The position numbers and the translations under genes were made by a program. The notes beneath the pieces are model-generated. The model ran no database searches, had not been told where the DNA came from, and saw nothing but the letters and a program-made list of their open reading frames with translations. From contig NC_089434.1 of assembly GCF_026210795.1 (NCBI RefSeq), positions 1,426,001-1,490,000 of the forward strand: a stretch of 64,000 nt of DNA. The letters are read 5' to 3'. Below are positions 17,437-53,344 of the stretch, piece by piece (position 1 is the stretch's first letter; each line of letters opens with the position of its first letter). The stretch comes from Rhizophagus irregularis (taxonomy: Eukaryota).

Positions 17437-17445
17437 TACCGCCTT

Positions 17446-17961: not shown

Positions 17962-17999
17962 TGTATGTTACTTATAGTTACCTAATCTTCAATTGCCGA

Positions 18000-21792: not shown

Positions 21793-22884
21793 TTTTTTTA
21801 ATTTTTTTGATAAAAAAAAATTGAAAGATTTTATATTATTTTGAGTGTAGAGAAAAAAACACCTGCAAACTATCTATAAATGTGAATAAAGCATTACAGA
21901 TTTTTATATAATTGGTAAAGTACAAGATGAAAAAACTTGATTATCATAATTAATTGTATCACTTCAAGAAAGGGGGCCAGCGTAAAATCTACTCAATTTT
22001 GCCAGATTTTCTAAAAGGTTTTTGAAAAATCTGGTAAATTTTTTAAATCTTGAATAATTTTGGACATTTTACTGCAGATTGTAGTATTTTTCAGAAGATT
22101 TTCGGAATTTTTCTAAAACTTTTTGTACACTGAAGGGAACTCATCCATTAAAATTCCAATGGTGCATTATCCTCATAATCAAATTCTATAATCCCAAAAG
22201 TGTTAAATATCAAAATTTTATAATCCATAAGACAAATTATTGTCAAAATTTAATTAACACAAGGATCTTATTAGCAGGATTAACTGGTTAAAACTGTTTT
22301 GACCATAAATATATCAGTAATTCTGATCAGATTTACTTAATGCTGCCCAGAGACTTAGTAATTCAGTTATATGTTTCCAAACTCAAAATTTAATACCGAA
22401 TTTTTTCCTATTTATTAATAATGGTAGTGATTCAAATAGTCTTTTTTCAACTAAATGTATTAGCGTTAGTAAAATCGAAAATTGGTACAATTTTAAGTAA
22501 AAAAAAATTTTAAATATTTTTCATATTAACTGGTTAAGGTTTTTTTGGATGGTTCTAACCTCTACTTATTATTTATTTTATTTATTTTATTTTTTTTATA
22601 GAGAGAAATTGTCATAATACATGTATTATTTTGAAATTAACATTTTAAAAATTAAATTGAAAAACTATAATTTATTAATTAACGATAAAACGTTTTTTGT
22701 TAAAATTATTTAAAAATTTTTTAAATTATAGCGAAAATGCTACAACAGTAAATAATATTATAATAGCGAAATTGATCAGCAAACAAATGAAAACATGCAA
22801 ATATTAAATGATGTCTCAATTTAACAGGTATTTTCAGTGGCACAGGAAGAGTTTTTGCGAAAAGTTGGCATTAGAAGTTTTTTT

Positions 22885-22966
22885 CATTGTCATTGTCATT
22901 GACATTGACATTGACATTGACATTGACATTGTCATTGTCATTGTCATTGTCATTGTCATTGTCATT
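22885..22966 (+). repeat. (CATTGT/CATTGA)n hexamer microsatellite; inverted copy at ~31647-31728
   Basis: Directly visible. Confidence 0.9.
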
Positions 22967-25359: not shown

Positions 25360-25695
25360 ATGATAAACTTACATGCCGCCACTTCTCTTGCCGAAGACCT
25401 CGGGCTTGATCTTGTAGACATCTATGGAATCCGTAAATGGATCCAAATTCAGGCATCACCCCTCAATGACCCGGACATAGTAGCAGAGATGGTCAGAAAC
25501 CTTCCGGTTAAAGAATTCAGAAAACATCTCAAGATTAACAGACTCTGGTACAACGGTTGTAAAGCCGAGTTGTGGAAGCGGCATAAAGAAGCTGAGGAGG
25601 CATACGACAGGGCGGTAAACCACTACAGGGAAGCTAATGATCCTGCAGAGTCATATTTTTTGTCCAGATTTTTACAAGGATTGATGACTATGTAA
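25360..25695 (+). CDS. Truncated F-box-like protein in the left TIR
   Basis: The first ~85 aa are nearly identical to 17446-17961; the ORF then runs into the 52-bp repeat. Confidence 0.6.
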   Translation: MINLHAATSLAEDLGLDLVDIYGIRKWIQIQASPLNDPDIVAEMVRNLPVKEFRKHLKINRLWYNGCKAELWKRHKEAEEAYDRAVNHYREANDPAESYFLSRFLQGLMTM

Positions 25696-25868
25696 CCATA
25701 TCATCAGGTATCCTTACATTTTTCAACAAGGATTGATGACCATGTAACTTCATCATCAGGCATTCATGAATTCTTAACATAAACTAATAAATTTTTGAAT
25801 GTTCTATCTAGTACTCTTTCAAAATTTTGTCTAATCACTAGTTTGAACTGATGAGATAGCAAATCAAG

Positions 25869-26681: not shown

Positions 26682-27085
26682 AATGAATAATATTACAACC
26701 ACTCAGTAAAGGTAAAGTGTTCATTTCTGATGTGTATGTTCAAATGGACGAATGGATGGATGGATAGAATCCTGAACATTATTGTACAAATGGCCAGATG
26801 AACAAATGGATGCCATTCCATCTAATGCTATATTTTTAACGTATAAATGGATGGATGGATGGAATCCTGAACATTGTTGTACAAATCAAATGGATGGAAT
26901 CCTGAACATTATTGTACAAATGGCCAGATGAACAAATGGATGCCATTCCATCTAATACACATTAGAAATTATTAGAGAACATTCAAAAATTTATTAGTTT
27001 ATGTTAAGAATTCATGAATGCCTGATGATGAAGTTACATGGTCATCAATCCTTGTTGAAAAATGTAAGGATACCTGATGATATGG

Positions 27086-27421
27086 TTACATAGTCATCAA
27101 TCCTTGTAAAAATCTGGACAAAAAATATGACTCTGCAGGATCATTAGCTTCCCTGTAGTGGTTTACCGCCCTGTCGTATGCCTCCTCAGCTTCTTTATGC
27201 CGCTTCCACAACTCGGCTTTACAACCGTTGTACCAGAGTCTGTTAATCTTGAGATGTTTTCTGAATTCTTTAACCGGAAGGTTTCTGACCATCTCTGCTA
27301 CTATGTCCGGGTCATTGAGGGGTGATGCCTGAATTTGGATCCATTTACGGATTCCATAGATGTCTACAAGATCAAGCCCGAGGTCTTCGGCAAGAGAAGT
27401 GGCGGCATGTAAGTTTATCAT
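27086..27421 (-). CDS. Truncated F-box-like protein in the right TIR (identical protein to 25360-25695)
   Basis: Mirror copy within the TIR. Confidence 0.6.
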   Translation of the reverse strand: MINLHAATSLAEDLGLDLVDIYGIRKWIQIQASPLNDPDIVAEMVRNLPVKEFRKHLKINRLWYNGCKAELWKRHKEAEEAYDRAVNHYREANDPAESYFLSRFLQGLMTM

Positions 27422-28326
27422 TGTATGTTACTTATAGTTACCTAATCTTCAATTGCCGAATATATTTTTTCCAAGAATCCGTGCTCCTACCCGGTTATCT
27501 CTCTGTGGCTTTACAGACCTTCTAGGGGCTATTAACCTACCTGTTTACTCGGTTTGCTATCTCACTGCTTCCGACAGATGAATAGACTGAATCCTGATCA
27601 TATGACAGATCTATGACAGAATGACAGATCTGGGGGGTAAAATCAAAACTTTTTTCTGGGAGTATCCTCTCCCGATTTTTCTGAAACATCTGTCATATCC
27701 GTCATATCTGTCATACCCCTCTGATTCTATCGTATTTTCCTCTCTTTTCCCTTATTTCATTCTTTTTTAGTATATTATTATATGACAGATGTTAATGACA
27801 GATGGTGACAGATATAGGGGATTCCCTACCCCACGGAGGGGGGATGTAGGTACTGCGAGGCCGTGGCCGAGGTGGAGGAACGTAGTGACTACACTACCAG
27901 CCCGACGACTGTAACGAATAACGATATTGGAAATTTAAAAGATCACTCACCTTAATATTTTTATTAAAGTCATATCCAAGTTTGGAAAAGAACTTCATGC
28001 GTGCCATCAACGCTCATGTGATATTAAAAATTACATATTACGTACGTTGTGACACAGTGTTGTAAATTCAAGGTCATTTAACTTTTTTGAATGACCTAGG
28101 CCATTTCGTTATGATCACGTGATAAATTTACTACTGATTACGTAATTAGGCATTTTCAAGTCATTTCGAGGTCATTTGCAAACGGGAAAAGCACGTGCTA
28201 GTTGGTGATCGATCAAAAGATATAAAATGATGACATTCAGCTTTAATATTTTTTTTTTTTTCCCTAACAAAACTTTATTAATAACATAGCTTTAATATTT
28301 TACCAAGTTGAAATCAAAAAATCAAA

Positions 28327-28865: not shown

Positions 28866-31800
28866 AGTAAAAAGAGCTTCAAATTTAACAAAGTTTCTGG
28901 ACAAGTATAAGTATTATAAAACACGAATAAAATAAAAAAAGGGAAATCATTTGCAGAGATCAATTATGGAAAAAAAGAAGGATATCTTTTAGAAGATCAA
29001 CTTCTTGTTGATTATCATAATAATGTTTATATAAAATGTACAATATCTGTAGTAATAGGCTAATTAGTATTGCTTAATAAAAATTATTAAATTCTATATT
29101 GCAAATATATTTGTATTTTTTATTTATGGCTCTAACAGTTTCACATATATAAATTATTTCGCTTAGAAAATTGTTGGATAATAAATAAAATCATAAACTT
29201 GACCTTTTGCCTTTTTCTCGTCAACTTTACTATTCATCATGAAGTCTTTAACCATAATTAAAAATTCTTTAGTGTATAATACCAGCTTAAATCTCGAGAT
29301 CTTCCGCACCACAGGATTTTTGATATAAGCAAATGATATTGAGGTAAAGGAATTTTCTGAGTCACAGTCCTGAATAGATGAAGATGTGTCGTTACAGGCT
29401 TATAGCTGACGCCGGTATATATTTCTTGAATCAAACGTTGCCCTTAGCAACAACCTCTTCGTTTTTTCATCCATGGCACAATATTTTGGGAAATCAGGAT
29501 GCCTCTGGATCTATAGAAGTAGGGTTACATTGTTCTGCAATAAGCCTGTCTCCCACTTCCTCTGCCTTATATCTCTTTATTTTGTTGCGATTTTAACACT
29601 CTCTTTCACTAGATGCTTTTAATATTGTCTCATAATAATTATCATCACTGCTGAAGCAAAAGTACTTAGTTGAAATTTTAAATGTAAGTTATTTGACTCC
29701 TTCTTGTAATTTATGAAGTAGCTGACAAATACTTTAACATCATAACTTCATCTTTAAATTCTATTCCCTAGTGAATTAGTTGGTGAAATTGCTTTCAAAT
29801 TCATATTTCCCATAAATTTTTGAAGCTATATCATAAGTGATATTGTTTTTTATGATATTTGCATATATAAATTTATTCCCTCATTTCTTTGGTAACACCT
29901 TATTAACCAACCCAATATATAAATATATATAAATAAGCAAGATCAAATTGACTTATTCTGGCTAAATAGTAAACAAAGCAGAAAAAAAGAGAATCAGTTA
30001 ATGAATAGAAAAAAAATGAGAAAATGTTTTCAGATTTGAAAAATATTTATCAGTGAGGGTTGGATTATGATGATGATACTAATGAGTTGATTATCTTGAG
30101 ACACTTAACTAATTGGAAAATTGTCATTGTCTCTAAACTTTGATATTGGTCCCATTTCCTCCCACAAGTTTGTTTAGAAACATCTTTAGATGGTTGAGCT
30201 CAAGAAAGTTTTATATTATTCAAAATCATAAACTGCAACTTTTAACTTTTTTATGAAAGAAAAGCTTCTTAGGGTTTGAGACAATAAAATCTTTAATGTC
30301 AATTTTAGGACTATTAATAAATTTATGTCAAATGATAACCATGTAAATATCATTACGTCTTCATTGCGTCTAAAAGCAAACAATTTAATAATATAGTACT
30401 TTCATTTTGATGAAGAGATGATAGTTTTTAAAAGTACTATAAGAGTTTTTTGAAGGTATGTATAAACTTTTACAAACCTTTTTGAATATATTATGATTAG
30501 TAATAAGATAGACTCTTGATAGAAGCTTATAATGGTGAAATACAGTAAATGATATAAACAAAATTAATAGACGTATTAAAAAAATAATTTATCAGTAAAT
30601 TTTTTTTTTCTTGTTACGGAAAGAATTCACGAGAAAAAAATTGTTCCCATAATAAGTTTAATTTATTAATGCTTATTTAATTTATTTGTGATGATTTAAA
30701 AATATAAAATAGAAACAATATTATTTATTTTTATTACAAATATTCGAGTATAAATTTAACAGTGTTAAACATAACGAGAAGTTATTTCGCTAATAATCTT
30801 ATAATTATTGATCAAAAATCAAAATACAACAATTCATCACTATTTGATACTAAAAGAAAACTTGAATAATTTATTTTTAGTTCAACAGCATGTATTTTAC
30901 AATTATTATACAATATTAAAATCTCAGAAACATATATCTGGTTATAACATATGTTTTCAATGTATAGAATATTTATAATCATTACAGCCGGTAAACTGAA
31001 TGGGACTATAATTTAAATCCAATCGCTATACCGTTATAAAAAATTAAAGTAACTTACATTTTGCTTTAATCCTTCACTATGACATTAATTTCAACTTGCA
31101 CAAAGTGTAATTTTTATTTTACTATATTTATATTTAATATGACAAAAGAGAAAGCGGATTGTAAATTGTGTTCTCTAAAAGAAGTAATCCATTAATTTAT
31201 TCGTTTACATGTTTATGAAATTTCATGGGTTGCCATTTCGATATCAAATATGTTACATATATTGCGCATAATATACATACAAAACATGGATTCCTTTGTT
31301 TACCTAATATATATCCAGTTTTGAATTTTTATTTGTGGTTTAAGATTATCTATCGTTTATAAATTTACATACGGTAATATATTGAATTACATAATTTAAA
31401 ACAATAAAAAGATATTATTGGGCGTTTTTTATAAAACTAGTAACGATTTTGTTGATCATTTGTTGATCATTTATTTTTAAATTTATTATAAATTTTGTCA
31501 CGAGATTTTCTATGGAAATCATTTCTCAATTTGTTATTAAAACACCTGCTGAATTGCCTCGAAATTGAAAATCATTTCTCTTTTTATAAAAAAATTTCCT
31601 TTTTGGTAAAAAACTCTCAAATTAATCTTATATAACTTTATATGTAAATGACAATGACAATGACAATGACAATGACAATGACAATGTCAATGTCAATGTC
31701 AATGTCAATGTCAATGACAATGACAATGAAAAAAACTTCTAATGCCAACTTTTCGCAAAAACTCTTCCTGTGCCACTGAAAATACCTGTTAAATTGAGAC

Positions 31801-32820
31801 ATCATTTAATATTTGCATGTTTTCATTTGTTTGCTGATCAATTTCGCTATTATAATATTATTTACTGTTGTAGCATTTTCGCTATAATTTAAAAAATTTT
31901 TAAATAATTTTAACAAAAAACGTTTTATCGTTAATTAATAAATTATAGTTTTTCAATTTAATTTTTAAAATGTTAATTTCAAAATAATACATGTATTATG
32001 ACAATTTCTCTCTATAAAAAAAATAAAATAAATAAAATAAATAATAAGTAGAGGTTAGAACCATCCAAAAAAACCTTAACCAGTTAATATGAAAAATATT
32101 TAAAATTTTTTTTTACTTAAAATTGTACCAATTTTCGATTTTACTAACGCTAATACATTTAGTTGAAAAAAGACTATTTGAATCACTACCATTATTAATA
32201 AATAGGAAAAAATTCGGTATTAAATTTTGAGTTTGGAAACATATAACTGAATTACTAAGTCTCTGGGCAGCATTAAGTAAATCTGATCAGAATTACTGAT
32301 ATATTTATGGTCAAAACAGTTTTAACCAGTTAATCCTGCTAATAAGATCCTTGTGTTAATTAAATTTTGACAATAATTTGTCTTATGGATTATAAAATTT
32401 TGATATTTAACACTTTTGGGATTATAGAATTTGATTATGAGGATAATGCACCATTGGAATTTTAATGGATGAGTTCCCTTCAGTGTACAAAAAGTTTTAG
32501 AAAAATTCCGAAAATCTTCTGAAAAATACTACAATCTGCAGTAAAATGTCCAAAATTATTCAAGATTTAAAAAATTTACCAGATTTTTCAAAAACCTTTT
32601 AGAAAATCTGGCAAAATTGAGTAGATTTTACGCTGGCCCCCTTTCTTGAAGTGATACAATTAATTATGATAATCAAGTTTTTTCATCTTGTACTTTACCA
32701 ATTATATAAAAATCTGTAATGCTTTATTCACATTTATAGATAGTTTGCAGGTGTTTTTTTCTCTACACTCAAAATAATATAAAATCTTTCAATTTTTTTT
32801 TATCAAAAAAATTAAAAAAA

Positions 32821-34010
32821 ATGACCGCTACTCTGTCAGTTATCGCACTTGTAGTATGTTTAAGAGAATCCTCTCACACAGCATTTGGGGACGCTATCTA
32901 TCATGAGAAAGTTTCCAATGAAAATCCTGTTTTTGGATTCAAACAGTTTTCAAACGCGCTGCACGATTATAATGAGGCGTTTAAAGAAGGGGACTTAGTC
33001 CATTTTGGTGGAAAGTTCACTATTGATGACAATAAATTAATGGTAAGTAATTTTTGTATGTATCTAAGGAATAATGACATATAATAATTTTAATAATAAT
33101 TTTATAATTTACTTAATAATAATAATTATAAAAATGATAATAATCTAATAATAATAATTATAAAAATTTATAAAAATGATAATAATTTAAATAATTTTTT
33201 TAATATTAATTACAAATATAATATTTTCATTTGTCTTTTTCATATAAACAGCTCTTAGTTGAAGCGGCATGTGTGCTAGAACCTCAATTAGGACGTAATG
33301 GAGAACGTTTGAAATGGGAACCTGAAAAAATTCCATCAACAAAGCCGTTCGTTCATATCACTACTTCTGCTTGTGAACCATTGTCAACATCAAATAATAT
33401 GAATTTTGTTAAAACCAAATCGTTGATTTATTCACCATTTCATTCTGCTGCACGTTACATTAATTTTGAGATTGGATATTCAAGTGAATCAAAATGGCTT
33501 GAATATCTTTCTGATAAATGGAGTAAATTTGCCAATTTTTTCGTCGCTGGATTTCTTGAGGCAATTTATACAGACGGATCAACAACATACGTACAGATAG
33601 ATGCAAAGTTGATCGATTATGATGTTCGATTTCGTACTTCAACTTCAAGTAACAATTACCAACCCTCACCACAAAGATCAACCACCAACGCATTTGCTCA
33701 AAGGAGGAATAAATCAACTCCTAATTCACCAGTAAAAACACATATTACCCCAAAATCGGATTCAAATACCACAGAAATAGAAAATGCATATGAAGAAGAA
33801 AGTGATAATGATTCAGACAAAGAAGATACAGTAGGAACAAATCAATCTCCTATAGACCTGGTTATGATAGATGATAATACGCCTATTAATGCTAATAAAA
33901 CTAAAAAACGCCAATTATCTGATTTGTGTGATGGTGAAATTGATCAACCTATTAAACCGAAAAGAAGTTATAATAAAAAAGGAGGTCGTGGAGGACGCGG
34001 AAAGAAATAA
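32821..34010 (+). CDS. Two-exon gene (32821-33042, 33252-34010), putative OB-fold ssDNA-binding (RPA-like) protein with disordered acidic/basic tail
   Basis: Intron 33043 GTAAGT...AACAG 33251. Beta-rich patterns FKEGDLVHFGGKFTI and FFVAGFLEAI...VQIDAKLIDY; tail ends KKGGRGGRGKK. Confidence 0.7.
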
Positions 34011-34769
34011 AAATTATTTTGCGTATTATACAAATAATAAGAAAATATGTCAAAAATCATTTCCATAAATTATAGAAATTAAATCTTAAAGAAATTAGTA
34101 ACAGAAAATTTAGTATTATTCACAAGGATCCACATTTTTTTGTTAAAAAAATATTTTTTTTCTATAATAATTTGTTTCACTTCTTTTAAAAAAAGAATAT
34201 ACATATATTTTCTTATATATAATAAAAACATAAAATTTATGATCTGAAATTATGATATAATGGTTTAATTTTATTAAAAAAAATAAATCTTTTTATAACG
34301 AGTGATTTCGTAACTAATTAATGTACACGTTAACATAATTATTTATGCTACACATAAATCTAATCTAAATTTATCAAAAAATTTTCTTAATACTGCTTAA
34401 TACAGGTTAGAATTTTTGCCAATTTACTTTTAATTTATTCATAATTTTAATATTATTTTACAATTTTACAATTGTAATAGCAGGAGATATAATTTGGCCT
34501 ATCGGTCATATATGTAATACGTATTACCAATTTAAATATAGGATTTCCGATTTTAATATTGCAACATGTGATCACGTATTACGGTTATTAACAAAGAATT
34601 TTTTTATTTTTTCAGCTGATTATTTTTTTGTCTTTTCGTTTACAAAAACCTAATAAAATAGAAGTAAAATTTTATTTTTTTTCCTTAAATATAAACAAAC
34701 ACATTTAAATTAAATAACTCAGAATTTAAATATAAACAAATATTATAGTTTGTTTACACATATTTCAAA

Positions 34770-35930
34770 TTATGGTTTGAGCATTTTGGCCAAAGTAAAT
34801 CTTGCTCTTTAATTGAAAGTAGTTCAGCAAGTTTGAAGCTGTTAAGATATTAATCTACATGAAAGCACAGTTAATATTTTTGGAGTTATTTACATTTTTA
34901 CATAATAGTACTAAGTTACAAAATTTTTTTTACCTTCAGAGCGTATTTTGGGCAGTTTAGTCAAAGTATATCAACTTCTTATATTAATTGAAAGTTTTTT
35001 GGCGGGTCAAAATCTGCTTGGATATTAATTTTCATGAAGGTACAGTTAATACTTGAAGAGTTATTCACGTTTTTCACAATGGAATTTTATTTTTTCTATT
35101 TTATCACTTTAGAGCGTATTTTCGGCACTTTAGTCAAAGTAAATCGACTTCTTATATTAATTGAAAGTTGTTCAGCGAGTAATAATCTGTTCGAATATTG
35201 GTTTTCATGAAGGTACAGTTAATACTTGAAGAGTTATTCACGTTTTTCACAACGGTACTCATTCACGAATTTTATTTTTTCCGTTTTGTCACTTCAGAGC
35301 GTATTTTGAGCACTTTAGACAAAGTAAATTGACTTCTTATATTAATTGAATGTTGTTCAGCAGGTGATAATCTACTTGGATATTAATTTTCACGAAGGTA
35401 CAGTTAATACTTGAAGAATTATTCACGTTTTTCACAACACGAATTTTATTTTTTCCGTTTTGTCACTTCAGAGCGTATTTTGAGCATTTTAGTCAAAGTA
35501 AATTGACTTCTTATATTAATTGAAAGTTTTTCAGTGGGTCATAATCTGCTTGGATATTAATTTTCATGAAGGTACAGTTAATACTTGAAGGGTTATTCAC
35601 GTTTTTCACAACGATACTCATTCACGAATTTTATTTTTTCCGTTTTGTCACTTCAGAGCGTATTTTGAGCATTTTAGTCAAAGTAAATTGACTTCTTATA
35701 TTAATTGAAAGTTTTTCAGTGGGTCATAATCTGCTTGGATATTAATTTTCATGAAGGTACAGTTAATACTTGAAGGGTTATTCACGTTTTTCACAACGGT
35801 ACTCATTCATGAATTTTATTTTTTCTGTTTTGTCACTTCAGAACGTATTTTGAACATTTTGGTCAAAGGAAATCGACTTCTTTTATTAATTAAAAGTTGT
35901 TTAGCAGTCAAAATCCAATTTTCATGAAAA
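34770..35930 (-). repeat. 173-185-bp tandem array (inverted copy of 18680-19840)
   Basis: GGTACAGTTAATACTTG recurrences. Confidence 0.9.
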
Positions 35931-36227
35931 TGCAGTGGAGTAATTTATATTTTTTATGATCATACTATACTGAATTGCAAATAAATTTACATTCTTTAAT
36001 GTATTTTTAAAATTTAAATTTTTATTTAATATTACTTAATAAATAAGGTTGCTTGCCGAAACTAGAGGGTTTCGGCAATACTTTCTATATGATTTAATTA
36101 GAGTTTCAGCATTTAAACAATTTATAAGAATAAAGACAATATGATTTTTTGTATGTAAATATTTATTTTATAATATTTAATATTAAACTAATAAAATATA
36201 CGATTAAAAATATAATAAAAATTAAAA

Positions 36228-39286: not shown

Positions 39287-41465
39287 TTTCTGTATTTTGG
39301 AAAGGCTTTTATTTCTTCTTTTTTTAGGTTTATGGATGATTCTTGGACAATTATTCATGGTAGGTTTATTTGTGTGGGTGTTAATGGTGACGTTATTAAA
39401 CTACATTAACATCCCTTTTTTTATTTTTAGATTCCCAGATAATTTTAAACAACATTCTTCATGGTAGATCCTTTGCATGGTGTTTAATGGTGTATTGTTT
39501 AATAATATTAATGCCTTTTTTTATTTTTTTTAGATTTTTGGATGGTGTCAATAAATTTTTTGGATAATTATGTGATGGTTTTAATGGTAGTACTAACCCC
39601 ATTATTTACTTTGTTTTCTAGGATTTTATTATGGTACGTAGGTTTTTTATTAAATTGGGTGATAATGGTGCTATTAAACAAAACTAATAATGCCTTCTTA
39701 TTTTTGTAGCATTTTTTGGATAGGAAACGCAAATGACATTAGACGCGATGAGATATCAAAGACATCTGAGACGTATTAGAAGTTTTTTGTTGGAATCGAA
39801 CCAACTGGAAAAATGTTCCAAACCATTAACAACATTTATAGTTTAGAAAGATAAAATATTAATGTAATACATATAATAAATATCTAGTTTTAAGCAAATA
39901 AAATAAATAAATGATGTTTATTAATAAATAATAATATACAATACACATAAAAATCAGTAAAATATCGGGATATATCAGGATATATTATCAATGAAATATT
40001 GTATTTTGATAATATACGGCAATAATTGAAAGTGCGAAAATTATTAGTACTCCATAAGTATTGCTCCGATTACTATGAAAATTTACGTGCAGGTAGATTC
40101 GACATCGCCGAACAACATTACTTAAACTTGAAAAGGCGATTACATTTGACTAAAATGCATTCCGAGCGTACCGACGTTAGTAAAAAAATAAAAAAATAAA
40201 GTAATATTATTGTGAAAAATACAATTTTTTTTATGAGTATGATGTCTAATTTTATGAGAATTAGATGTAATAAGTTCAATAATGTATTTGAAAACAAATT
40301 ATCAGTTTAAAAATTTATTTTATAAAAATTTTTGAACGTGTGAAATTTAATTTTATTTTTTATATATAAAAAATTACTCCTGTTACGCAAATCTATATAT
40401 GACTATTCATTTCTAATTTATTTGCTACGCAAATACAAATATGACGTTATGGAAATTTTACCCCTAAATACGCAAAATTCTATATGACTTAATAAAAAAT
40501 TTTATATGATGAATAAGCAAATTTTTTTGTCACCGTTCATTCCAAAAGGATGGGAATAGAAAAATTATTATTAATACAACTGAGTTTTTTTGTAAAAAAA
40601 GTGATTAAAATTTCATTAACTGGAAAAATTATATTAGCAATAAAGAATTGTGTACATATGAACATATGACCTGACCGCTAATCAAATAACATGGACAGAT
40701 CATGTTACATAATTCAAATTATTTATACAGACAGTATGACAGAATATTTCTCGGTTTACACAATTTTTTAAAAAGCTATCAATCGGCCGGTAAGTTGTAC
40801 AACCGATACCAAAACTGCATATATATATAGTAAATAAATAATATTAAATTAATATTAATAATAAATAAATATTGCACATAATTATAATTTATTTATTAAA
40901 TATATTAAATAATTCACTCAGTTTATACAATTATCGATCAGCCAGTAAGTTATATGGCCAATACCAAAACTGTGGTTTTTAATATATATATATAGTTAAT
41001 AAATAATATTAATTATTTATCAATATATTAAATAATTTTAGATATAACAGCTAAGTCATATATATAGCGAATAATAATTGCATTAATTACATGATAAATA
41101 AAATGAATAATCACGTATTTTACATTATTTTTAGGAAAAAACTGGTAATTAATTACCAGAATTACAAATAAGAAAAATAAGATAATAAAATCCATGTATT
41201 ACATAACACATATGATCTTCGGGAATCGGATATTTTGGCAGGTTTCGGCCTATCTTAAGATTCGGCCTAATTTTGAAGTTTCAGTCAAAATTACAAATTT
41301 CAGCCAAAATTTTGGATTTCTGGAATTTTATTGGTTAAATCCTTTCACAATTTAAAAATAGGGTTTTAGTAAAAGACCCTTTATTTTGGTATATTAACAC
41401 TGAAATGTAATTAAAATTCTTACATTAATAAATACATTTTTAATTTTTTCATATAATATAAAACT

Positions 41466-44400
41466 ATGAGTTTTACTGTTAATCATTGGAGAGTTGAAGT
41501 ATCAGATAATGATTCTGAATCTTATTTGAACTCAGAACATGAAAATTTTGATAGTTCATTATTTTCAAGTTATGCAGTTCGTCAACAAGCTAATGCAGAT
41601 CATTCTCGAATTCCAATTCAACCATCTTTGTCTTCTGCAAACATCACCTTTAGAGCTTATTTTCCATCCTGGCAACCTTCTATAAAATTGTGTAACTTAC
41701 AAGATCGGTTTAATACAACTATTCTTACTCAATATCCATGTGTTCCATGTAGTTATTGTTCTCGTTTACAGTATCCAACAAAGGCAAAGTGGGAACTATA
41801 TGATAGAACATTTAAATATCCTTTAGAAGAAGCTTATTCAAATAATCCACAAATCACATTAGTTTTTCATACTGATGATTCTCAACCTGCACGTATAGCA
41901 ACATGTTCTTCTTGTTATAATTCTAATAATCATCTTAAAATACCAATTCCTGATCCTATACCTGATGAAATTCAAAGTGTGCCTTTATATCATCGAATTT
42001 ATCTCTCACCTATTCATCTTAGTTGTTCATTAGGCCGAGTTCCAAATAGCAATGCTTACACAAACTATCGTCACTTAACTGGAACCTTTAACTACTCAAA
42101 AAATATTAATGCACTTGCATTATATTCTGGTACCATTGGTGCTATACTAAATAATAATCAATCAAATTCATGGTATCATTCTTCACTTGATAATGCAGCA
42201 AGATGGTTACGAGATCATAATCCTTATTTTAAACCATATCAAACTTTAATTAATCGTGGAACATGGGATGGGGCACCAATTATCTTTCCAAATGCCTCAC
42301 TTAGTAATACTTCTCAAAATCAAGACCAACCATTATTTAACATTAATTCACGTCCTTCTGCTGTAATACTACCTCCCTATGAACTTGATGCAGAAATTCA
42401 TAATGAAGATTACCATTATAATCGATTAATGGCAGGATTTTTAACTGATCCATATAATAAAAAATTACCAATATCTTTTTATGATAAAAATATTGAACCA
42501 CTTTTATTTCCTGACCTTTTTCCATATGGAAAAGGATTTTATATAAATGATGAAAATACAAATCGGCGATTTACAGATAGTTTAGGTAATTATGCAAAAT
42601 CTTTACTACTTTGTCCTGATCCCAGATGGAGATTATCTTGGTATTGGCCTCATTATATTTATTTAACAATTGAAAAATTAAGAAATCACCAAAATAGAAA
42701 TCGAATTTTAAATCAATATAATACTTCACTATCACATCAATTAACAACAGCAGATTTAATTACCAATAGTATTTATACTGGACGTCCAATAATTAATGAA
42801 AAAAATACAACAACTATACCTTCTTATATTAGAACAGGAGATTCTTATTTTCGCCAAAAAGAACATCATATTAATACTATGGTTCAAGGATTTGGTTTAC
42901 CACAAATTTTTTATACTATGACTATGGCTGAAAATCATTGGTCACATTTAAAAAATATTTTATTAAAAACTGATAACAAAGATCCCCTTCCTTCTAATCG
43001 TCCATTTCATACCTACTTGCATTATCATCATCGTTTAGCATCAATGCATCAATATCTTTGGAAAAATCCAAATTTAACTGATTGGGGTAACTGGTTACAT
43101 CATTTTGAACGTGATGAATTTCAAAATCGTGGAGCAATTCATACACATGGTATAGCTTATTTATCTAAATCAATTTCTGAATTAATTGATTCTAATGTAA
43201 TTAGAGCAGATATGCCAGATCCCAATTCTGAACCAGAATTATATGAATTGGTTAAAAAACATCAAATTCATACTTGTGATTCACGTTGTGGAGGTCCAGC
43301 TCCATCTGGTTCACGTTGCAAAAAAGGTTTTCCTCAACCATATTCAGATACTACACATGAAGATCCTAATTCCTTAAGATATATTTATCGTCGTACTAAA
43401 GAAGAAGATTTATATGTTATTCCATATCATGCACCAACATTATTTTTATGGAATGGTCATATTAATTTTCAATATGTAACAACACATCAATTTGCAAAAT
43501 ATATGACTAAGTATGTTACAAAATCTGAACCATCAGAATATTTTGATATTTCTGAACCTGATGCATTTCGAAAACATATTTTAGCAAGACGTCTTGGATC
43601 AATGGAATTAATGATTCTTTTACTTGGATATTCAATATGTCGATCATCAATTGCTGTTGAATTTCTTCCTTCTATTCCTCCTGAAATAAGAACTAAATCT
43701 ATAAAACCACTTTATTTATTACAACAAGAAGAACAATTATCTCCCTATTGGGATGATGCCATTGATAAATATTTTGATCGTCCATCTGATAATGAATTTG
43801 ATAGTATGACATATCCTTTTTATCATCGCAATTATACTATACAAAAAAGTCAGCCAAAAAATGGAATATATTATATAGATAAAAAAAACTGCTTTGTAAG
43901 AAAAAGACAAAAAGAAATTCTTGTACGTTTTCAACATTTAACAATTCAGCAATCAGAATCATTTTATTATCAACAATTACTACTTAGATTACCTGTTAGA
44001 AGTGAAACTGATTTAAAAAGCTTATATCAAACTTATAAAGCTCATTTTGAAGCTAAATATCCTACTGAATATTCATTAACTTTAAATTTTGTACAAAATT
44101 CAATGCAATCTAATATTCAAAGATATACAAATAATTATCAAAATTTAGTTAATAATTTGATATCTTCATTGCATGTAAACTTACAAGAAATTATTGGAAA
44201 TCAGTTAAATAATTTGTTACGTCAACCTATTCGCTCTTTAAATCTCTCATCTATGCTACTTTCTGAAGATCAATACAAAATAATGAATATACTTACAAAT
44301 AGTTGGGGAGAAAGATTACATTCTAAACATCCTTATTTTTTTCTAACTGGTTCAGCAGGTACTGGTAAATCTTTTATGATACATCTAATTAAAAATTTTT

Positions 44401-45569
44401 TAGCTGATAAAAAAACTGAATATTTATTGATGGCTCCTACTGGTGTTGCTGCACAAAATGTAAATGGAAAAACTATACATTCAGCACTATATATTAGAAA
44501 TACTCAAACCTATTTTGAAACATTATCTCATTATAATAATCAACAATTTGAAAAACTTAGCCAGATTAAAGCTATTATAATTGAAGAAGTATCAATGGTA
44601 TCATCAATTCTTTTATCTTTTATTAGTTCATTATTTGCAAAAATTAACAAATCACCAGTACCTTTTGGTGGAATTCCAACTTTACTAATTGGAGATATTG
44701 CTCAACTTCCACCTGTAAGTGGTAAACAAGTTTTTTATGCTCCAGAATGGCAAGAATTTTTCCCACTTTTTCTTACAACTTCTCATCGCCAACAAGATAG
44801 ATCATTTTATAATATATTAGAAGAAATGCGAATAGGAAATATAAGTTCAGAAACAAGAAGATTAATTGATGAAAAAGTGCAATCATATCAAAGTAACAAT
44901 GAAATGTCAACTGATACTACCTATATTTTTGGATTTCGTCATAGTGCAGATTCAATTAATAATTTAATCTGTGGTTATCTTCCTATTTTTAAAGATATCT
45001 CCTCTGGATTTTTAATTTCTACAGCTATTGATTATGTTAATGAAAAAGAATGTATACCAAAAGAATATGATAAACAATTTAGACATTATACTAATTTACC
45101 ATCTGAATTAATAATAAGAGAAGGAGCAAGAGTAATGTTTCTAACTAACAAATTATTTAATGAACAACTTTGTAATGGATCAATTGGTGTGGTAACTAAA
45201 TTAATAAATGAAAATCAAGTAGAAGTGGCATTTCCAATAAATAATGGGATAAATCAAGTTATAGTAGAAAAAATTACAACTTATTTTAACTTACATGGAG
45301 CTTCAGCACAACGAACACAATTTCCACTTCAAAATGCATTTGCTCTAACTGTACACAAGACACAAGGCCTTACATTACCCCATGTAACTGTATCATTGGA
45401 TGAACAAATGTTTGCTCATGGGCAATCTTATGTAGCAATAAGTCGTGCCACATCTTGGGAAAATCTAGAAATCCAATCTTTTGATCCAAATGCAATAAAA
45501 GTAGATGATGCAATGTTGTCAGAATTAAATAGATTACAGGAGAAGTTCAATACAATGTATTTATCATAA
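41466..45569 (+). CDS. Helitron RepHel transposase (HUH/Y2 Rep plus PIF1-family helicase), intronless, 1367 aa
   Basis: Rep motifs FYTMTMAE..W, EFQNRGAIHTHG and KYMTKYVTKSE; helicase motifs GSAGTGKS, APTGVAA, EEVSM, FGG..GDIAQLPPV, QFPLQNAFALTVHKTQGLTL and GQSYVAISR. Confidence 0.95.
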   Translation: MSFTVNHWRVEVSDNDSESYLNSEHENFDSSLFSSYAVRQQANADHSRIPIQPSLSSANITFRAYFPSWQPSIKLCNLQDRFNTTILTQYPCVPCSYCSRLQYPTKAKWELYDRTFKYPLEEAYSNNPQITLVFHTDDSQPARIATCSSCYNSNNHLKIPIPDPIPDEIQSVPLYHRIYLSPIHLSCSLGRVPNSNAYTNYRHLTGTFNYSKNINALALYSGTIGAILNNNQSNSWYHSSLDNAARWLRDHNPYFKPYQTLINRGTWDGAPIIFPNASLSNTSQNQDQPLFNINSRPSAVILPPYELDAEIHNEDYHYNRLMAGFLTDPYNKKLPISFYDKNIEPLLFPDLFPYGKGFYINDENTNRRFTDSLGNYAKSLLLCPDPRWRLSWYWPHYIYLTIEKLRNHQNRNRILNQYNTSLSHQLTTADLITNSIYTGRPIINEKNTTTIPSYIRTGDSYFRQKEHHINTMVQGFGLPQIFYTMTMAENHWSHLKNILLKTDNKDPLPSNRPFHTYLHYHHRLASMHQYLWKNPNLTDWGNWLHHFERDEFQNRGAIHTHGIAYLSKSISELIDSNVIRADMPDPNSEPELYELVKKHQIHTCDSRCGGPAPSGSRCKKGFPQPYSDTTHEDPNSLRYIYRRTKEEDLYVIPYHAPTLFLWNGHINFQYVTTHQFAKYMTKYVTKSEPSEYFDISEPDAFRKHILARRLGSMELMILLLGYSICRSSIAVEFLPSIPPEIRTKSIKPLYLLQQEEQLSPYWDDAIDKYFDRPSDNEFDSMTYPFYHRNYTIQKSQPKNGIYYIDKKNCFVRKRQKEILVRFQHLTIQQSESFYYQQLLLRLPVRSETDLKSLYQTYKAHFEAKYPTEYSLTLNFVQNSMQSNIQRYTNNYQNLVNNLISSLHVNLQEIIGNQLNNLLRQPIRSLNLSSMLLSEDQYKIMNILTNSWGERLHSKHPYFFLTGSAGTGKSFMIHLIKNFLADKKTEYLLMAPTGVAAQNVNGKTIHSALYIRNTQTYFETLSHYNNQQFEKLSQIKAIIIEEVSMVSSILLSFISSLFAKINKSPVPFGGIPTLLIGDIAQLPPVSGKQVFYAPEWQEFFPLFLTTSHRQQDRSFYNILEEMRIGNISSETRRLIDEKVQSYQSNNEMSTDTTYIFGFRHSADSINNLICGYLPIFKDISSGFLISTAIDYVNEKECIPKEYDKQFRHYTNLPSELIIREGARVMFLTNKLFNEQLCNGSIGVVTKLINENQVEVAFPINNGINQVIVEKITTYFNLHGASAQRTQFPLQNAFALTVHKTQGLTLPHVTVSLDEQMFAHGQSYVAISRATSWENLEIQSFDPNAIKVDDAMLSELNRLQEKFNTMYLS

Positions 45570-48038
45570 TAGCATCCAATCTAATTTTTTTAAATCACTA
45601 TACTTAACATTATCATCATATCTAATATTTTACTAAAATTAATACAAACTATTATATTTATATTTATCTTTATATTATTATCACTTAACATGTTACAGGA
45701 TCAATTCATTTTGATCATTAAATATAATATTTCTTTAATAAAACTAATAAACTCAAAATAAACCATAAAATTTATTATTTGATAAAAATACAAAATACAA
45801 ATCAACTTTTTAATATAAACCCTATTATATTACTTAAAATATATATAAATAATTACTGAATAATGCAATAATTATATTATAACTCACTAACAATACCAAA
45901 TTACCCTAGTTAATTAATAAAATTTTACTTGCATTATATAATTTTTTTTTTTTTTGGAATAATAAAATTTTTCAACCTTCATTTATAATTCATTTAATAG
46001 TTTGCTAAACTCGTGTACAGTATATAATTGCAACAATCGGCCGAAACTAAAATTCGCCGTTTATCATTTAATTCCAGTCAAGTCGACAATCACTAGACTC
46101 TAGTGTATGAGATTGAAATAGTTACAAACAAATAATAAGACATTTATTTAATATTTAAACTTATTCAACGATTGTTAATTAATAAAATTTAAAAGTAATT
46201 TCCTACGCTTAAAATAGTTTTGATAGCAACTGAGAAGATTAATAATATTAGTTTCCATATTAAAAATAGACACAGCAGAAACAAAATTTTACCATTTAAT
46301 TATTGTGAAATTGGAAAAGTATTCAAATTGCTTTCCGCTTTATTTGTCTATTGCAAATTAATTTTCCTTCTCAAATATTTTATATAATCTTTCAATTCGC
46401 GCTTTAACTAAATCCGAAATAAAATTACAAGAATATCTAAGTACGTTAGATCTCCTATCAAATAGGAGCCGAATGAGATTATCATCAATATATCTAATGT
46501 TCTAGTTGAAAGCCAGAAGAATAATTCTGATTAGCTTTTCCCTCACTTTTATCTAAAAAATAATAAAATGATAACAATGACAATACAAGGAGAGAAAATA
46601 ACAGAAAAGATATAAATTTTGTCTATTAAATATTATCATTTTAATGATTCACTTATCTAATCCATTTTTTTTGATACTCTTTACCAAGGAAAATAGATGT
46701 CTGATGATAAAATAAGATTTAACAGCTTTGACGATTGTGATATCTAGGGTTATTATTGAGTAATAGTATATATATTTTATACTCATTAAAAGCTTAATCA
46801 TGCGATACTTAATCAAACACATTTTAAAGAATAATAAAAAATTTTGAATTTAATTTTCTTACAAAAATTCTTTGTGCAGAAAATGATTCAATTTAATCAA
46901 AAATCATACTATAAATGAAATGGGAGTAAAAATATTAACACAAAAGTTCTCTTAGGAATTGACATCGAACAATCTTAGTGAATCTATTAAGGATAACTAA
47001 AAATTCAATATGATAATTATGCTTAAATCAAACTTGCTATTCTGCTATACTAATCTCATTATCATGCAATAGATACGCTATATCACCTGAATCACCTGAT
47101 GTAACCTTTTATTTAATTCTACTTAAAACTCTTATTATTTCAAATTAAATTTGTAGTATTTATTATTAGCCGAATAATTAAAGTTTGTATTTAACAAATT
47201 TTATTTTAGCAATTCAGTTGCTAAAAGCTCATCGGTGAGATTACATATTTAACCTTAGTGATGTTAGTACATCGACTTATTATTTAAAGAAAAATCACAT
47301 ACAGTCAGTATAATATTGTTAATTATAAACACATAGATCACAATCACTAATTCCCTATTCTCGATTTCTCGTCCTGAATAGAAATTAATTGGCCGCAGTT
47401 TCAGATCATGTGATACTATGAACCAAGTTCATGACCCTCACGTTTTATATTTTGGAAAAAAGTGGAATTACATGAATTTGTCGCTATGTTTACTACGTCA
47501 TTGACGAAATGCTGAAATGTCACTTAATTGTTAATTCTATTTGTTCATAATCAATGTTTCTAATAATATGAAGATAATTTTTAACGTTCTATTAACAAAA
47601 AATGTAATATAAATCAAACTACTGTATTTGATACATAAATATAATCGTACAATTTAATTTCCGTATCTACCAAAGTAATTATAAGCGGAGTGATAAAATT
47701 AAATAAATAATTGACAAATAATCGACAAAATTGTGATAAAGTAAAAATGAATGATAATCATTTCATTGGTGCTTAGTAATTACCTAAGATGAAATGATTA
47801 ATCAGTTACTGCGATTTTGTAATAATTGATCTACATTCCAGTTTGTTTGTCATATATGCAATGATGCAATGCTTGTACTTGTAATCAACGCTTTTGCACA
47901 TAATGTATTTTGCATAAATATTATTACATTTATTCATACTAATAAAGGCGCTCAATAATAAAAAAAAAGAAATAAATAAATAAAAATATTTACTTTATCT
48001 TTTCCAGTTGGGGAGAATTTGAGAATTTTGATATAGTA

Positions 48039-51000
48039 ATGGACCAATGTATTGAAGGTAGCTGAAATATTTTTTTATTTATAAACAATTCATGTTTAAT
48101 ATCTTATATAATTCAACTAATTACATTCTTTATTTAAATAACTAGATTGTAAGTAACTATATATAATTTACAGTAAATGCTTTTATATTATCTTTATATT
48201 TAACTAATTAATAATTAATAATACTACAGGGTGTAAGTTATATGATATCTATATTTGTATTATTTATATAATTTAAACTTAATTTCTTTATTTAAAAAAT
48301 TATTTCGTAGATGGTAAGTTATTTATTTAATTCTATTATTACTTAATGTTATAATATTTACATATAATTTAAACTATCTAATTTCTTTATTTAAAAAATT
48401 ATTAAATAATATAGCGAGTAAGTTATTTATTTAATTCTATTATTACTTATTGTTATAATATTTACATATAATTTAAACTATCTAATTTCTTTATTTAAAA
48501 AATTATTAAATAATATAGCGAGTAAGTTATTTATTTAATTCTATTATTACTTATTGTTATAATATTTACATATAATTTAAACTATCTAATTTCTTTATTT
48601 AAAAAATTATTAAATAATATAGCGAGTAAGTTATTTATTTAATTCTATTATTACTTATTGTTATAATATTTACATATAATTTAAACTATCTAATTTCTTT
48701 ATTTAATAGATTGTAAGATATTTATTTAATTCTATTATTACTTATTGTTATAATATTTACATATAATTTAAACTATCTAATTTCTTTATTTAAAAAATTA
48801 TTAAATAATATAGGGGGTAAGTTATTTATTTAATTCTATTATTACTTATTGTTATAATATTTACATATAATTTAAACTATCTAATTTCTTTATTTAATAG
48901 ATTGTAAGTTATTTATTTAATTCTATTATTACTTATTGTTATAATATTTACATATAATTTAAACTATCTAATTTCTTTATTTAAAAAATTATTTCGTAGA
49001 TGGTAAGTTATTTATTTAATTCTATTATTACTTATTGTTATAATATTTACATATAATTTAAACTATCTAATTTCTTTATTTAATAGATTGTAAGTTATTT
49101 ATTTAATTCTATTATTACTTATTGTTATAATATTTACATATAATTTAAACTATCTAATTTCTTTATTTAATAGATTGTAAGTTATTTATTTAATTCTATT
49201 ATTACTTATTGTTATAATATTTACATATAATTTAAACTATCTAATTTCTTTATTTAAAAAATTATTAAATAATATAGCGAGTAAGTTATTTATTTAATTC
49301 TATTATTACTTATTGTTATAATATTTACATATAATTTAAACTATCTAATTTCTTTATTTAATAGATTGTAAGTTATTTATTTAATTCTATTATTACTTAT
49401 TGTTATAATATTTACATATAATTTAAACTATCTAATTTCTTTATTTAATAGATTGTAAGTTATTTATTTAATTCTATTATTACTTATTGTTATAATATTT
49501 ACATATAATTTAAACTATCTAATTTCTTTATTTAATAGATTGTAAGTTATTTATTTAATTCTATTATTACTTATTGTATTATTAAATAATATAGGGGGTA
49601 AGTTATTTATTTAATTCTATTATTACTTATTGTTATAATATTTACATATAATTTAAACTATCTAATTTCTTTATTTAAAAAATTATTAAATAATATAGGG
49701 GGTAAGTTATTTATTTAATATTATTACTTATTGTTATAATATTTACTATAATTTAAACTATCTAATTTCTTTATTTAAAAAATTATTAAATAATATATAT
49801 AAGATTGTAGTAAGTTATTTATTTAATTCTTATTACTTATTGTTATAATATTTACATATAATTTAAACTATCTAATTTCTTTATTTAAAAAATTATTTCG
49901 TAGATGGTAAGTTATTTATTTAATTCTATTATTACTTATTGTTATAATATTTACATATAATTTAAACTATCTAATTTCTTTATTTAAAAATTATTAAATA
50001 ATATAGGGGGTAAGTTATTTATTTAATTCTATTATTACTTATTGTTATAATATTTACATATAATTTAAACTATCTAATTTCTTTATTTAATAGATTGTAA
50101 GTTATTTATTTAATTCTATTATTACTTATTGTTATAATATTTATATAATTTAAATATCTAATTTCTTTATTTAAAAAATTATTAAATAATATGTAAGTTA
50201 TTTATTTAATTCTATTATTACTTATTGTTATAATATTTACATATAATTTAAACTATCTAATTTCTTTATTTAAAAAATTATTTGTAGATGGTAAGTTATT
50301 TATTTAATTATATTATTACTTATTGTTATAATATTTACATATAATTTAAATATCTAATTTCTTTATTTAATAGATTGTGTTATTTATTTAATTCTATTAT
50401 TACTTATTGTTATAATATTTACATATAATTTAAACTATCTAATTTCTTTATTTAATAGATTGTAAGTTATTTATTTAATTCTATTATTACTTATTGTTAT
50501 AATATTTACATATAATTTAAACTATCTAATTTCTTTATTTAATAGATTGTAAGTTATTTATTTAATTCTATTATTACTTATTGTTATAATATTTACATAT
50601 AATTTAAACTATCTAATTTCTTTATTTAAAAAATTATTTTGCAATTTATTTTAGTTGGTAAGTCATAAGTTATTTATTTAATTCTATTATTACTTATTGT
50701 TATAATATTTACATATAATTTAAACTATCTAATTTCTTTATTTAAAAAATTATTAAATAATATAGCGAGTAAGTTATTTATTTAATTCTATTATTACTTA
50801 TTGTTATAATATTTACATATAATTTAAACTATCTAATTTCTTTATTTAAAAAATTATTTCGTAGATGGTAAGTTATTTATTTAATTCTATTATTACTTAT
50901 TGTTATAATATTTACATATAATTTAAACTATCTAATTTCTTTATTTAAAAAATTATTAAATAATATAGGGGGTAAGTTATTTATTTAATTCTATTATTAC

Positions 51001-53344
51001 TTATTGTTATAATATTTACATATAATTTAAACTATCTAATTTCTTTATTTAAAAAATTATTAAATAATATAGCGAGTAAGTTATTTATTTAATTCTATTA
51101 TTACTTATTGTTATAATATTTACATATAATTTAAACTATCTAATTTCTTTATTTAATAGATTGTAAGTTATTTATTTAATTCTATTATTACTTATTGTTA
51201 TAATATTTACATATAATTTAAACTATCTAATTTCTTTATTTAAAAAATTATTAAATAATATAGGGGGTAAGTTATTTATTTAATTCTATTATTACTTATT
51301 GTTATAATATTTACATATAATTTAAACTATCTAATTTCTTTATTTAATAGATTGTAAGTTATTTATTTAATTCTATTATTACTTATTGTTATAATATTTA
51401 CATATAATTTAAACTATCTAATTTCTTTATTTAATAGATTGTAAGTTATTTATTTAATTCTATTATTACTTATTGTTATAATATTTACATATAATTTAAA
51501 CTATCTAATTTCTTTATTTAAAAAATTATTAAATAATATAGCGAGTAAGTTATTTATTTAATTCTATTATTACTTATTGTTATAATATTTACATATAATT
51601 TAAACTATCTAATTTCTTTATTTAAAAAATTATTAAATAATATAGCGAGTAAGTTATTTATTTAATTCTATTATTACTTATTGTTATAATATTTACATAT
51701 AATTTAAACTATCTAATTTCTTTATTTAAAAAATTATTAAATAATATAGCGAGTAAGTTATTTATTTAATTCTATTATTACTTATTGTTATAATATTTAC
51801 ATATAATTTAAACTATCTAATTTCTTTATTTAAAAAATTATTATGATCTAGCTTGTAAGTACCTCTATTGTTATATATTTATATAATATTTATTTGTTAA
51901 TTGAATTCTTTTATTCAAAAAATTATCTGTTACTTTAGTTGGTAAGTTATAAATTATAAGTTATTATGTATTTATCCAAAGACTAAGACTTATATTACAT
52001 TAAATTTCTATTTAAATTTTAGAGTAAGTAATAATTTATTTTAGTGTAAATTATAATATAATCTATAATATAATTTTAATTATTAAAATTTATAGATTTG
52101 GGAAAAGTGGAAATACAATTATAGATGATTTTATTTTAAAAAAAAAATTAAGATGGATTCCTTATAACCGATTTAAAAATGTTGAATATCTTAATGAAGG
52201 AGGATTTGGTACTATATACAAAGCTATTTGGTTAAAGAATAATAAAGATGAAAAAGAAGTAATTTTTAAATGTCACAAGAATTTAAATGAAAATTTAAAT
52301 GATTTTTGAAAGAAGTATGATAGATTGATAGTATATTATTTTTTTATTTTTATAATTTATATTAATAAATTATTATTAATTTTTGTAGTGGGACTATCAT
52401 AAGAATTGTTTAAATTCATCACATGAAATTGTAAATTTTTATGGATTTACAAAAGATCCAGAGATTTCAAAATATATAGTAGTAATGGCTTATGCAAATA
52501 ATGGTAATTTAAGAGAAAATTTAACAAGAATAGTCAAAAATAATTGGAATCAAAAATTATGTATGTTGTACAGAATTATTTCTGGACTTAGTAAGATACA
52601 TGAAAAAAATCTTATTCATTGTGATTTTCATGATGGTAATATTTTAAATCATAATGAGAGTATATTATATATTAGTGATTTAGGATTATGTCAACCTGTA
52701 AAATCGGGTTTGAAAAAGTATGATATTTATGGTGTTATACCATTTATGGCTCCTGAAGTTTTAAGAGGCAAATCTTATATTCCAGCTAGTGATATATATA
52801 GTTTTTCTATGATTATGTGGGAGTTTACATCTGGAATACCACCATTTAATAATAGAGAACATGATCTTCATCTTAGTTTAAGTATTTGTAAAGGTGAACG
52901 TCCTGAAATTATTGAAAATACTCCACAATGCTATGTAGATTTAATGAAAAAATGTTGGAATGAAGATCCATTAAAAAGACCATCTACATCAGAAGTGAAG
53001 GATGTTATTAAAAAATGGATTCTCCGTCCTGATGAAGATGATGAAGTCAATGATGAATTAAAAAGCAACATTATGGAATTTATAAATGCACCAATTGGGC
53101 AGTATAACAATCTTGTTACTCAACCTCATCCTAAAGCATGTTATACAAGTCGCTTACTTAATTTTACTAGTAAAAAATTGAATGAAATTATTGAAAGTGA
53201 AGATTTGAATGATTTTATAATTAAGGATTTGGGGTCATTAGGTATGTATCATGATATATAAAAAATTAATCTTGCAAATTATTTATGTGAAATTAATTTT
53301 ATTTAATATTTAACTTAGATATTAAAACAGATGAAAAAAACTAG
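48039..53344 (+). CDS. Tyrosine-kinase-like protein kinase with microexon-encoded N-terminus (possible 1-bp frameshift at ~52305)
   Basis: Exon 48039-48057 (MDQCIE), microexons, exon 52096-52314 (KSGNTIIDDFI...WIPYNRF..EGGFGTIYKAIW), exon 52389-53241 (HCDFHDGN, SDLG, FMAPE, SDIYS) and final exon 53319-53344. GATTTTTGA is one T short of the expected DFLKE. Confidence 0.75.
48058..52095 (+). repeat. Tandem array of ~40 mini-introns (mostly 87-, 99- and 104-bp units) separated by 3-nt microexons
   Basis: Each unit is GTAAGT donor - AT-rich body - CTAAT branch site - (T/C)AG acceptor - 3 nt (ATT, ATG, CGA, GGG, GGT, TTG or CTT). Confidence 0.85.

Follow-up and report, generated by a model that had tools for sequence, protein, structure and literature searches.

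Three-base exons in series are spliced into transcripts of a kinase family of Rhizophagus irregularis

Can some forty consecutive exons of three bases each be spliced into one messenger RNA (mRNA), and how would a protein segment encoded in this way vary? The question is raised by a locus of Rhizophagus irregularis in a window of 64,000 nucleotides (nt; assembly GCF_026210795.1, contig NC_089434.1, positions 1,426,001 to 1,490,000 of the forward strand; all coordinates below count from the first letter of the window). Between a first coding exon of 19 nt (48039–48057; ATG plus 16 nt, ending in phase 1) and the kinase exon starting at 52096, all on the plus strand, the stretch 48058–52095 is a run of complete short introns. 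A first-pass annotation, made from the letters alone, had described it as about 40 tandem introns separated by phase-1 microexons of 3 nt, in front of a kinase of an expanded family. This description was borne out: a count of donors gives 43 introns, with 41 three-base exon slots, and such triplets are spliced into the mRNA of the family.

The 41 slots comprise three unique triplets (ATT at 48146, GGT at 48230 and ATG at 48311, with their unique introns in 48058–48313), 37 near-identical intron-plus-triplet units (48314–51854, ending with the triplet CTT at 51852) and the penultimate exon TTG (51939–51941), which lies behind a unique intron. One exon of a single nucleotide, A at 52023, comes in addition. 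YAG-NNN-GTAAG sites number 38 within 48146–51941, plus one with a damaged donor at 50374; the rest of the window (~60 kilobases, kb) has two such sites on the plus strand and none on the minus strand. Intron lengths are 72–111 nt with a single exception of 53 nt. Intron sequence makes up about 97% of each unit, a branch-point-like CTAAT occurs in 36 of the 37 units, and an internal AG in just two.

That the array arose by multiplication of an intron-plus-triplet unit, as the first reading had also considered under the name of tandem duplication, is supported by the 37 near-identical units, 24 of which match one of four types exactly (87 nt with ATT, 104 nt with CGA, 104 nt with GGG, 99 nt with ATG). 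The four types have an 81-nt prefix in common, and their differences are confined to the acceptor segment and the triplet. Tandem Repeats Finder also picked up the array. The order of the units is aperiodic: the longest repeated run is 4, a value equalled in 88% of 3000 shuffles. Compared with the repeat core, the unique flanking introns score no better, or hardly better, than shuffled sequence, with the exception of intron 3 (0.73–0.79; shuffle maximum 0.73). Unit number and order are as read from the assembly sequence. Small gaps affect 11 units, 10 of them among the 13 units of 49542–50768, a noisy part that includes the zone already flagged at 49700–50400 and may be an assembly error. Two units (49702 and 50097) are without a proper acceptor and triplet, and one unit of the noisy zone has no branch point.

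Evidence for splicing came from six of 24 listed sequencing runs, which were aligned to segments of the window, 51753–52700 (at 88% likeness) and 47560–48330. X22, X23 and X24 are raw polyA RNA runs of one study, X22 and X24 being one sample; X2 stems from a separate study, and its RNA nature is a guess. Before 52096 the alignments left loose ends in 214 reads of X22 and 306 reads of X23, and both consensuses end with CTT-TTG-A (agreement 0.58 and 0.60, respectively). A contig of X2 has 133 loose letters at the same place, forming an unforked run whose final 30 parse fully into ATT, ATG, CGA, CTT, TTG and A, and TTG is present in all three loose-end sequences. Behind 48057 the consensus of the loose ends (93 reads of X24, 82 of X23) begins with ATT-GGT in both runs, with ATG as the third triplet in one of them (agreement 0.62 and 0.59). 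RNA depth was 0–1 on the unique intron at 51849–51912 and ~340–440 on the kinase exon; the DNA-like run X6 covers both.

Partly spliced reads were also found. In five reads with five different starts, the 48057–48230 joint has exactly ATT between its sides and is followed by the retained intron 3; in another five, with three starts, exon 1 and ATT run into an unspliced intron 2. Such reads represent splicing caught step by step, with the triplet kept in place. Among the joints listed none skips a triplet, and ATT was kept in 5/5 reads with the 48057–48230 joint. Three-base exons are spliced into mRNA in this kinase family; the claim is made at the family level, and is not proven for the window copy, because most reads come from paralogs. 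Direct splicing from 48057 to 52096, or a silent locus, had been named in advance as outcomes contrary to the proposal, and the reads of the family show otherwise.

Three other interpretations of the region were rejected. An intron in the 5′ untranslated region ending at 48008 was dismissed since reads continue upstream without such a joint. Recursive splicing with zero-length exons was ruled out by the spliced reads, which keep the triplets. A non-coding AT-rich satellite describes the tandem repeat correctly, but the variable triplets occur in the spliced RNA of the family.

The contigs of X2 show 0 differences from the window at 52106–52228 and 52479–52635, and none lies on exon 1. The triplet order of X2 is not a subsequence of that of the window (1/9 unmatched), though the X2 contig shares the window's letter at 52102; its chain represents another allele, a close paralog or a misassembly. 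The DNA run X1, with 0 differences over 47560–47754 and 48077–48200, may be the window's own source and was not counted as independent. DNA contigs hold further unit types with other triplets, and unit-like DNA in them reached a summed depth of up to 42,000 against 26–32 for single-copy sequence, which is not a copy number. At 51804–51842, the likeness of many polyA reads to the array's intron core is confined to a ~38-nt piece, with unrelated sequence around it (59 and 48 reads before, 70 and 72 behind); a fragment of the unit thus sits in another mature transcript.

When the model was translated, chain and kinase shared a frame only with inclusion of the 1-nt exon A (52023), which leads from phase 1 to phase 2. 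The first-pass chain from 48057 to 52096 missed this exon, which is indicated by the frame, the RNA and metagenome loci. Direct splicing of 48057 to 52096, the chain without the 1-nt exon, and a 5-nt alternative all meet stop codons. The 5-nt exon (52023–52027), apparently used by public models to reach Ser-Lys-Phe-Gly, was rejected because it breaks the frame from exon 1 and the RNA has a single A.

No mutual pairing of the seven triplets of the chain makes a stop, and the internal exons are symmetric; to this extent the earlier statements stand that no triplet combination creates a stop and that any subset can be skipped in frame. They fail at the end of the chain, where any triplet ending in T gives TAA when joined to the 1-nt exon, and where skipping of TTG or of the 1-nt exon results in a stop or a frameshift. 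Free skipping is limited because of these TAA codons, and TTG is not freely skippable. The stop-free alphabet is weak evidence, the chance for random sets of seven triplets being 0.31. By coordinates, the microexons make up ~124 of roughly 1,240 coding nt, and the translated N-terminus looks hydrophilic.

Downstream of the chain, the first kinase exon (52096–52314) encodes the glycine-rich loop and the beta-3 lysine, the main exon (52389–53241) the HCD, DLG and APE motifs, and a short last coding exon (53319–53344) was placed by its match to the C-terminus of P0121/P0122. The main exon encodes a protein kinase domain (PF07714, E 5.9e-34, 118 bits against a cut-off of 23.1; PF00069, E 7.8e-32, 111 bits) and is 99% identical to the R. 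irregularis protein P0001. All five kinase motifs are present (glycine loop, beta-3 lysine, catalytic Asp, DxG, APE), with HCD instead of HRD and DLG instead of DFG. Relatives at E<=1e-40 numbered 1141 among 1832 candidates; judged by these matches, the domain is a typical member of the expanded R. irregularis kinase repertoire. The family is putatively TKL; the kinase assignment itself was made from Pfam and homolog names.

The window copy does not have an intact reading frame. Near 52302 its first kinase exon has 1 nt fewer than the paralogs, which leads to a stop at 52307–52309, upstream of the catalytic core (lesion 52302–52309, from comparison with paralogs and translation). At 52303 the paralog letter was found in 299/306 raw RNA reads, a count that does not settle the window's allele. 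All four public models clustered with the protein of this locus skirt the lesion in frame, by a later start or by splicing around it; in the cluster of the nearest paralog, 3/5 models examined with that region read through it, and one more does so partially. In our judgement the deletion is rather a real lesion than an assembly error, with a fair margin of doubt, and the copy is probably a pseudogene or else misassembled at 52302.

How far do such chains extend through the family? Among 259 fetched public proteins, 98 had the first-exon motif and 34 of these a long N-terminus. Seven of the 34 long N-termini, all distinct, end in tracts with at least 70% Ile/Gly/Met/Arg/Leu/Val (R. irregularis, R. 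diaphanus). From their composition, we infer that these tracts are the same triplets read in phase 0 by gene predictors. Odd Ile/Gly/Met/Leu-rich N-termini were noted in nine models (P0006, P0019, P0036, P0194, P0199, P0204, P0213, P0030, P0088), probably triplet chains in the wrong frame, whose loci deserve re-annotation. The Asp/Tyr/Asn-rich tract of the RNA frame was found by screen in none of the 98 models, the two that were flagged being Gly-rich, and searches of the protein collection for correctly framed tracts found none. The paralog models imply tracts of about 20–45 triplets.

Metagenome sequences, which judging by similarity probably derive from Glomeromycota, were scanned for the same arrangement; the best 80 of 167 confirmed loci were used, and the first kinase exon is present in 52 of these. 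Over the 17,685 nt that precede this exon, candidates of the form acceptor-N(k)-donor numbered 54 for k=3, 6 for k=4 and 4 for k=1, with 0–1 for every other k up to 15. The controls for k=3 gave one candidate on the reverse strand and one in 89,899 nt downstream. Locus L028 has seven consecutive triplets with introns that are 65–78% alike. The microexon kinases are 43–69% alike on the first exon, and their triplet exons and splice sites are intact despite the divergence of the introns. A motif scan of viral contigs yielded only scattered single matches, and one locus with two, in the 80 of 120 loci listed. In many of the contigs L001–L080 the kinase exon is preceded by no more than a few hundred bases, which would be expected of short-read assemblies that break in the arrays.

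The phase of the first stop-free acceptor was as predicted from a phase-1 chain in 21/25 non-duplicate loci: in 8/8 with a last exon of 1 or 4 bases, all of which have a phase-2 acceptor, and in 13/17 with a last exon of 3 bases (misses: L020, L032, L044, L049). Because the acceptors share ancestry, these loci do not count as independent. The candidate in L049 proved to be a false positive inside coding sequence.

Related kinases may carry a CxxC motif upstream instead. Upstream sequence of at least 150 nt was available in 34 loci (one of them a duplicate; L033 duplicates L028), of which 21 had microexons and no CxxC, 9 had CxxC and no microexons, one had both and three had neither. The locus with both, L044 (101–395), is the only one with a 3-nt exon candidate and a CxxC exon; it nests among microexon kinases without CxxC and is possibly an intermediate or a recombinant. 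In a midpoint-rooted tree of 43 rows, for which L020 was assigned by hand to the 1/4-nt group, the microexon loci fell into two groups, one of them with the Rhizophagus proteins, and the CxxC kinases lay between and around them; such a tree cannot separate one origin from two. The architecture is RNA-supported, family-wide and old, and apparently undescribed.

What could maintain and vary such chains? Intron definition is established for short fungal introns. Each intron of 72–111 nt is equipped with a donor, a branch point and a first AG downstream of it; it would be removed alone while the triplet stays, and inclusion would be the default as every short intron is defined and spliced by itself. 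As the coding unit is exactly 3 nt, gain, loss or swap of a unit would preserve the frame. The identical 81-nt core may provide the homology through which unequal exchange or conversion takes place, one event editing two neighbouring residues, and reshuffling through identical cores would account for the mixed order of exact types, the extra types in DNA contigs and the differing tracts of the paralogs. The predicted product is an Asp/Tyr/Asn/Gly/Trp-rich tract of variable length, placed where relatives have the CxxC..CxxC motif, and it likely replaces this module, perhaps as a variable interaction or specificity tag. We give about even weight to the reading that the chains are spliced in and owe their diversity to DNA-level copying and reshuffling of units rather than to exon skipping. 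More tentative, and on balance doubtful, is the extension that introns serve as homology arms for three-base cassettes, with recombination among nuclei, alleles and dozens of paralogs rewriting an N-terminal recognition tract one residue at a time in place of an ancestral CxxC module, whether or not skipping is added, to give these multinucleate fungi a hypervariable signalling or self/non-self repertoire that no current annotation reveals.

A number of observations weigh against DNA-level diversification or limit its reach. Recombination is deduced from array anatomy. Simple unequal crossover might leave duplicated blocks in the order of the units, and none are seen. The gene that carries the homogeneous array is itself probably broken. 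The absence of stops in 23 adjacent triplet pairs (5.7% expected) is not significant. The CxxC pattern is phylogenetically non-independent, and in several CxxC loci the DNA upstream is short. The reads are mostly paralogous: those 99+% alike amounted to 57/1047 and 74/1232 on 51753–52700, and to 12/159 and 4/169 on 47560–48330. No single molecule shows the full chain of the window copy. The consensus agreement of only 0.58–0.62 can be explained by many paralogs and could also result from skipping, and a contig depth of 12.6 drops rare variants, excluding only heavy skipping in one gene.

The array could also be the outcome of neutral intron multiplication, in which slippage and unequal exchange spread a unit that is frame-safe and cleanly spliced; the tract would then be no more than a tolerant spacer, varying without selection. 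This rather unlikely account would fit the most homogeneous part of the array being on a gene with a premature stop, the low complexity of the product, a stop-free alphabet that random sets reach at 0.31, and the great abundance of unit-like DNA in DNA contigs. It does not easily accommodate chains that persist, with intact triplets and splice sites, in kinases 43–69% alike and between introns only 65–78% identical, nor exon lengths of 3n with 3n+1 at the end only, nor the loss of the CxxC motif that accompanies the chains; forty added introns per transcript should, moreover, be costly. The splicing-driven combinatorial device that the first-pass annotation had favoured, many isoforms per gene by skipping of triplet subsets as in schistosome micro-exon genes, fared poorly, and we consider it unlikely. 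Symmetric internal exons with stop-free pairing of all seven triplets, identical donors and acceptors that could pair out of register, and the mixed read consensus all agree with it. But no skipping joint was listed, ATT was retained in 5/5 joint reads, the RNA contig is unbranched for 133 nt, the chain ends ATT-GGT and CTT-TTG-A are constant, with a stop or frameshift as the price of skipping TTG or the 1-nt exon, and the number of paralogs would by itself suffice to account for the mixed consensus.

An inflated or scrambled assembly, the true chain being shorter or otherwise ordered than the 37 units, is very improbable. The single-base gaps concentrated in 49542–50768, the unmatched triplet of X2 despite its common letter at 52102, and the fact that no record spans the array point in this direction; against it stand the 24/37 units that reproduce one of four types exactly, each type with ends of its own, the left flank matched by DNA contigs with 0 differences, the up to 133 nt of chain in an RNA contig and the ~20–45 triplets implied by public models.

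The nearest known architecture is that of the Schistosoma micro-exon genes (MEGs), a multigene family proposed as a source of variant proteins (PMC4350168), with very small, symmetric exons of 3–81 base pairs in runs (bioRxiv 10.1101/2023.06.21.545858), according to passages of these sources. Both systems have very small symmetric exons in series, here 41 three-base slots, and both belong to multigene families; they differ in intron length, coding share and taxon. On the basis of the same passages, MEG introns measure 0.2–5 kb, whereas those of the Rhizophagus chain are near-identical repeats of 72–111 nt; MEGs consist mostly of micro-exons and encode secreted or membrane-anchored proteins, whereas the chain forms a small N-terminal part of a kinase. 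MEGs vary by alternative splicing, whereas no skipping was seen among the few informative, paralog-mixed reads of the chain, whose internal exons, unlike those of MEGs, all measure exactly 3 nt and straddle codon boundaries.

For Coprinopsis, 89 gene models are reported in which an exon is no longer than 3 nt; 27 three-base exons, spread over 26 genes, and 13 one-base exons are among them (PMC12230235). The isolated 1–3 nt microexons of fungi and plants are likewise real and disruptive to gene models, but occur at about one per gene, whereas the Rhizophagus chain has ~41 in succession, above the genome-wide Coprinopsis count, and is family-wide. Collagen-type exon repeats and troponin T microexon repeats arose by tandem copying of an intron and its exon with the phase kept. 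The Rhizophagus chain grew in a similar way, by copying an intron with its exon; unlike in those genes, the copied exon is one triplet split over two codons, the copies are near-identical and four types are interleaved aperiodically. In minisatellite variant repeats, and in the WD40 and TPR arrays of het-e and NLR genes, homogenised repeats are reshuffled at the DNA level. There, too, a few variable positions in homogenised repeats vary part of a protein, but in the Rhizophagus chain the homology lies in the intron and is spliced out, the variable unit is three coding bases, and recognition is conjectural.

The kinase repertoire of R. irregularis is put at 2,533 members in the long-read annotation paper, whose passages on exon, intron, kinase and isoform do not mention microexons (PMC10234402). 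No description of such triplet-exon chains was found in the literature searched, in which few subscription papers were within reach. Micro-exon genes as such, as far as the parts of the sources used here describe them, are a known kind from which the kinase chain differs in the ways shown; it would be categorically new if the diversification role were true, which we hold to be no more than a guarded possibility.

Function aside, a gene in which about forty three-base exons in a row and a one-base exon are spliced in order is extreme in structure. It lends itself naturally to testing how the spliceosome copes with introns that are hardly separated by exon sequence. A subfamily of the kinase expansion in arbuscular mycorrhizal fungi is misannotated at the N-terminus, being truncated or in the wrong frame. 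How these fungi generate diversity and recognise non-self are long-standing questions; if the tracts vary among strains or nuclei and set specificity, they would offer a testable source of rapid variation.

In the surroundings of the gene, an intact Helitron-type open reading frame (ORF) of 1370 codons (41457–45569, plus strand; Helitron_like_N, PIF1 helicase) ends ~2.5 kb upstream of the kinase gene. Inverted repeats of 4762 nt at 99.85% identity (18461–23222 and 31391–36152), with a nested pair of 935 nt at 100% (24871–25805 and 26976–27910), form a palindrome-like block of ~17.7 kb centred near 26400, which is either a large terminal-inverted-repeat element or an assembly artefact. Positions 1–18000 make up a GC-richer block (~40%) with several long ORFs (844, 629 and 492 amino acids), internal duplications (780–1756 versus 13560–14547; 14542–15710 versus 16303–17450) and an inverted 571-nt pair (1759–2328 versus 15736–16306); the block looks like a large mobile element.

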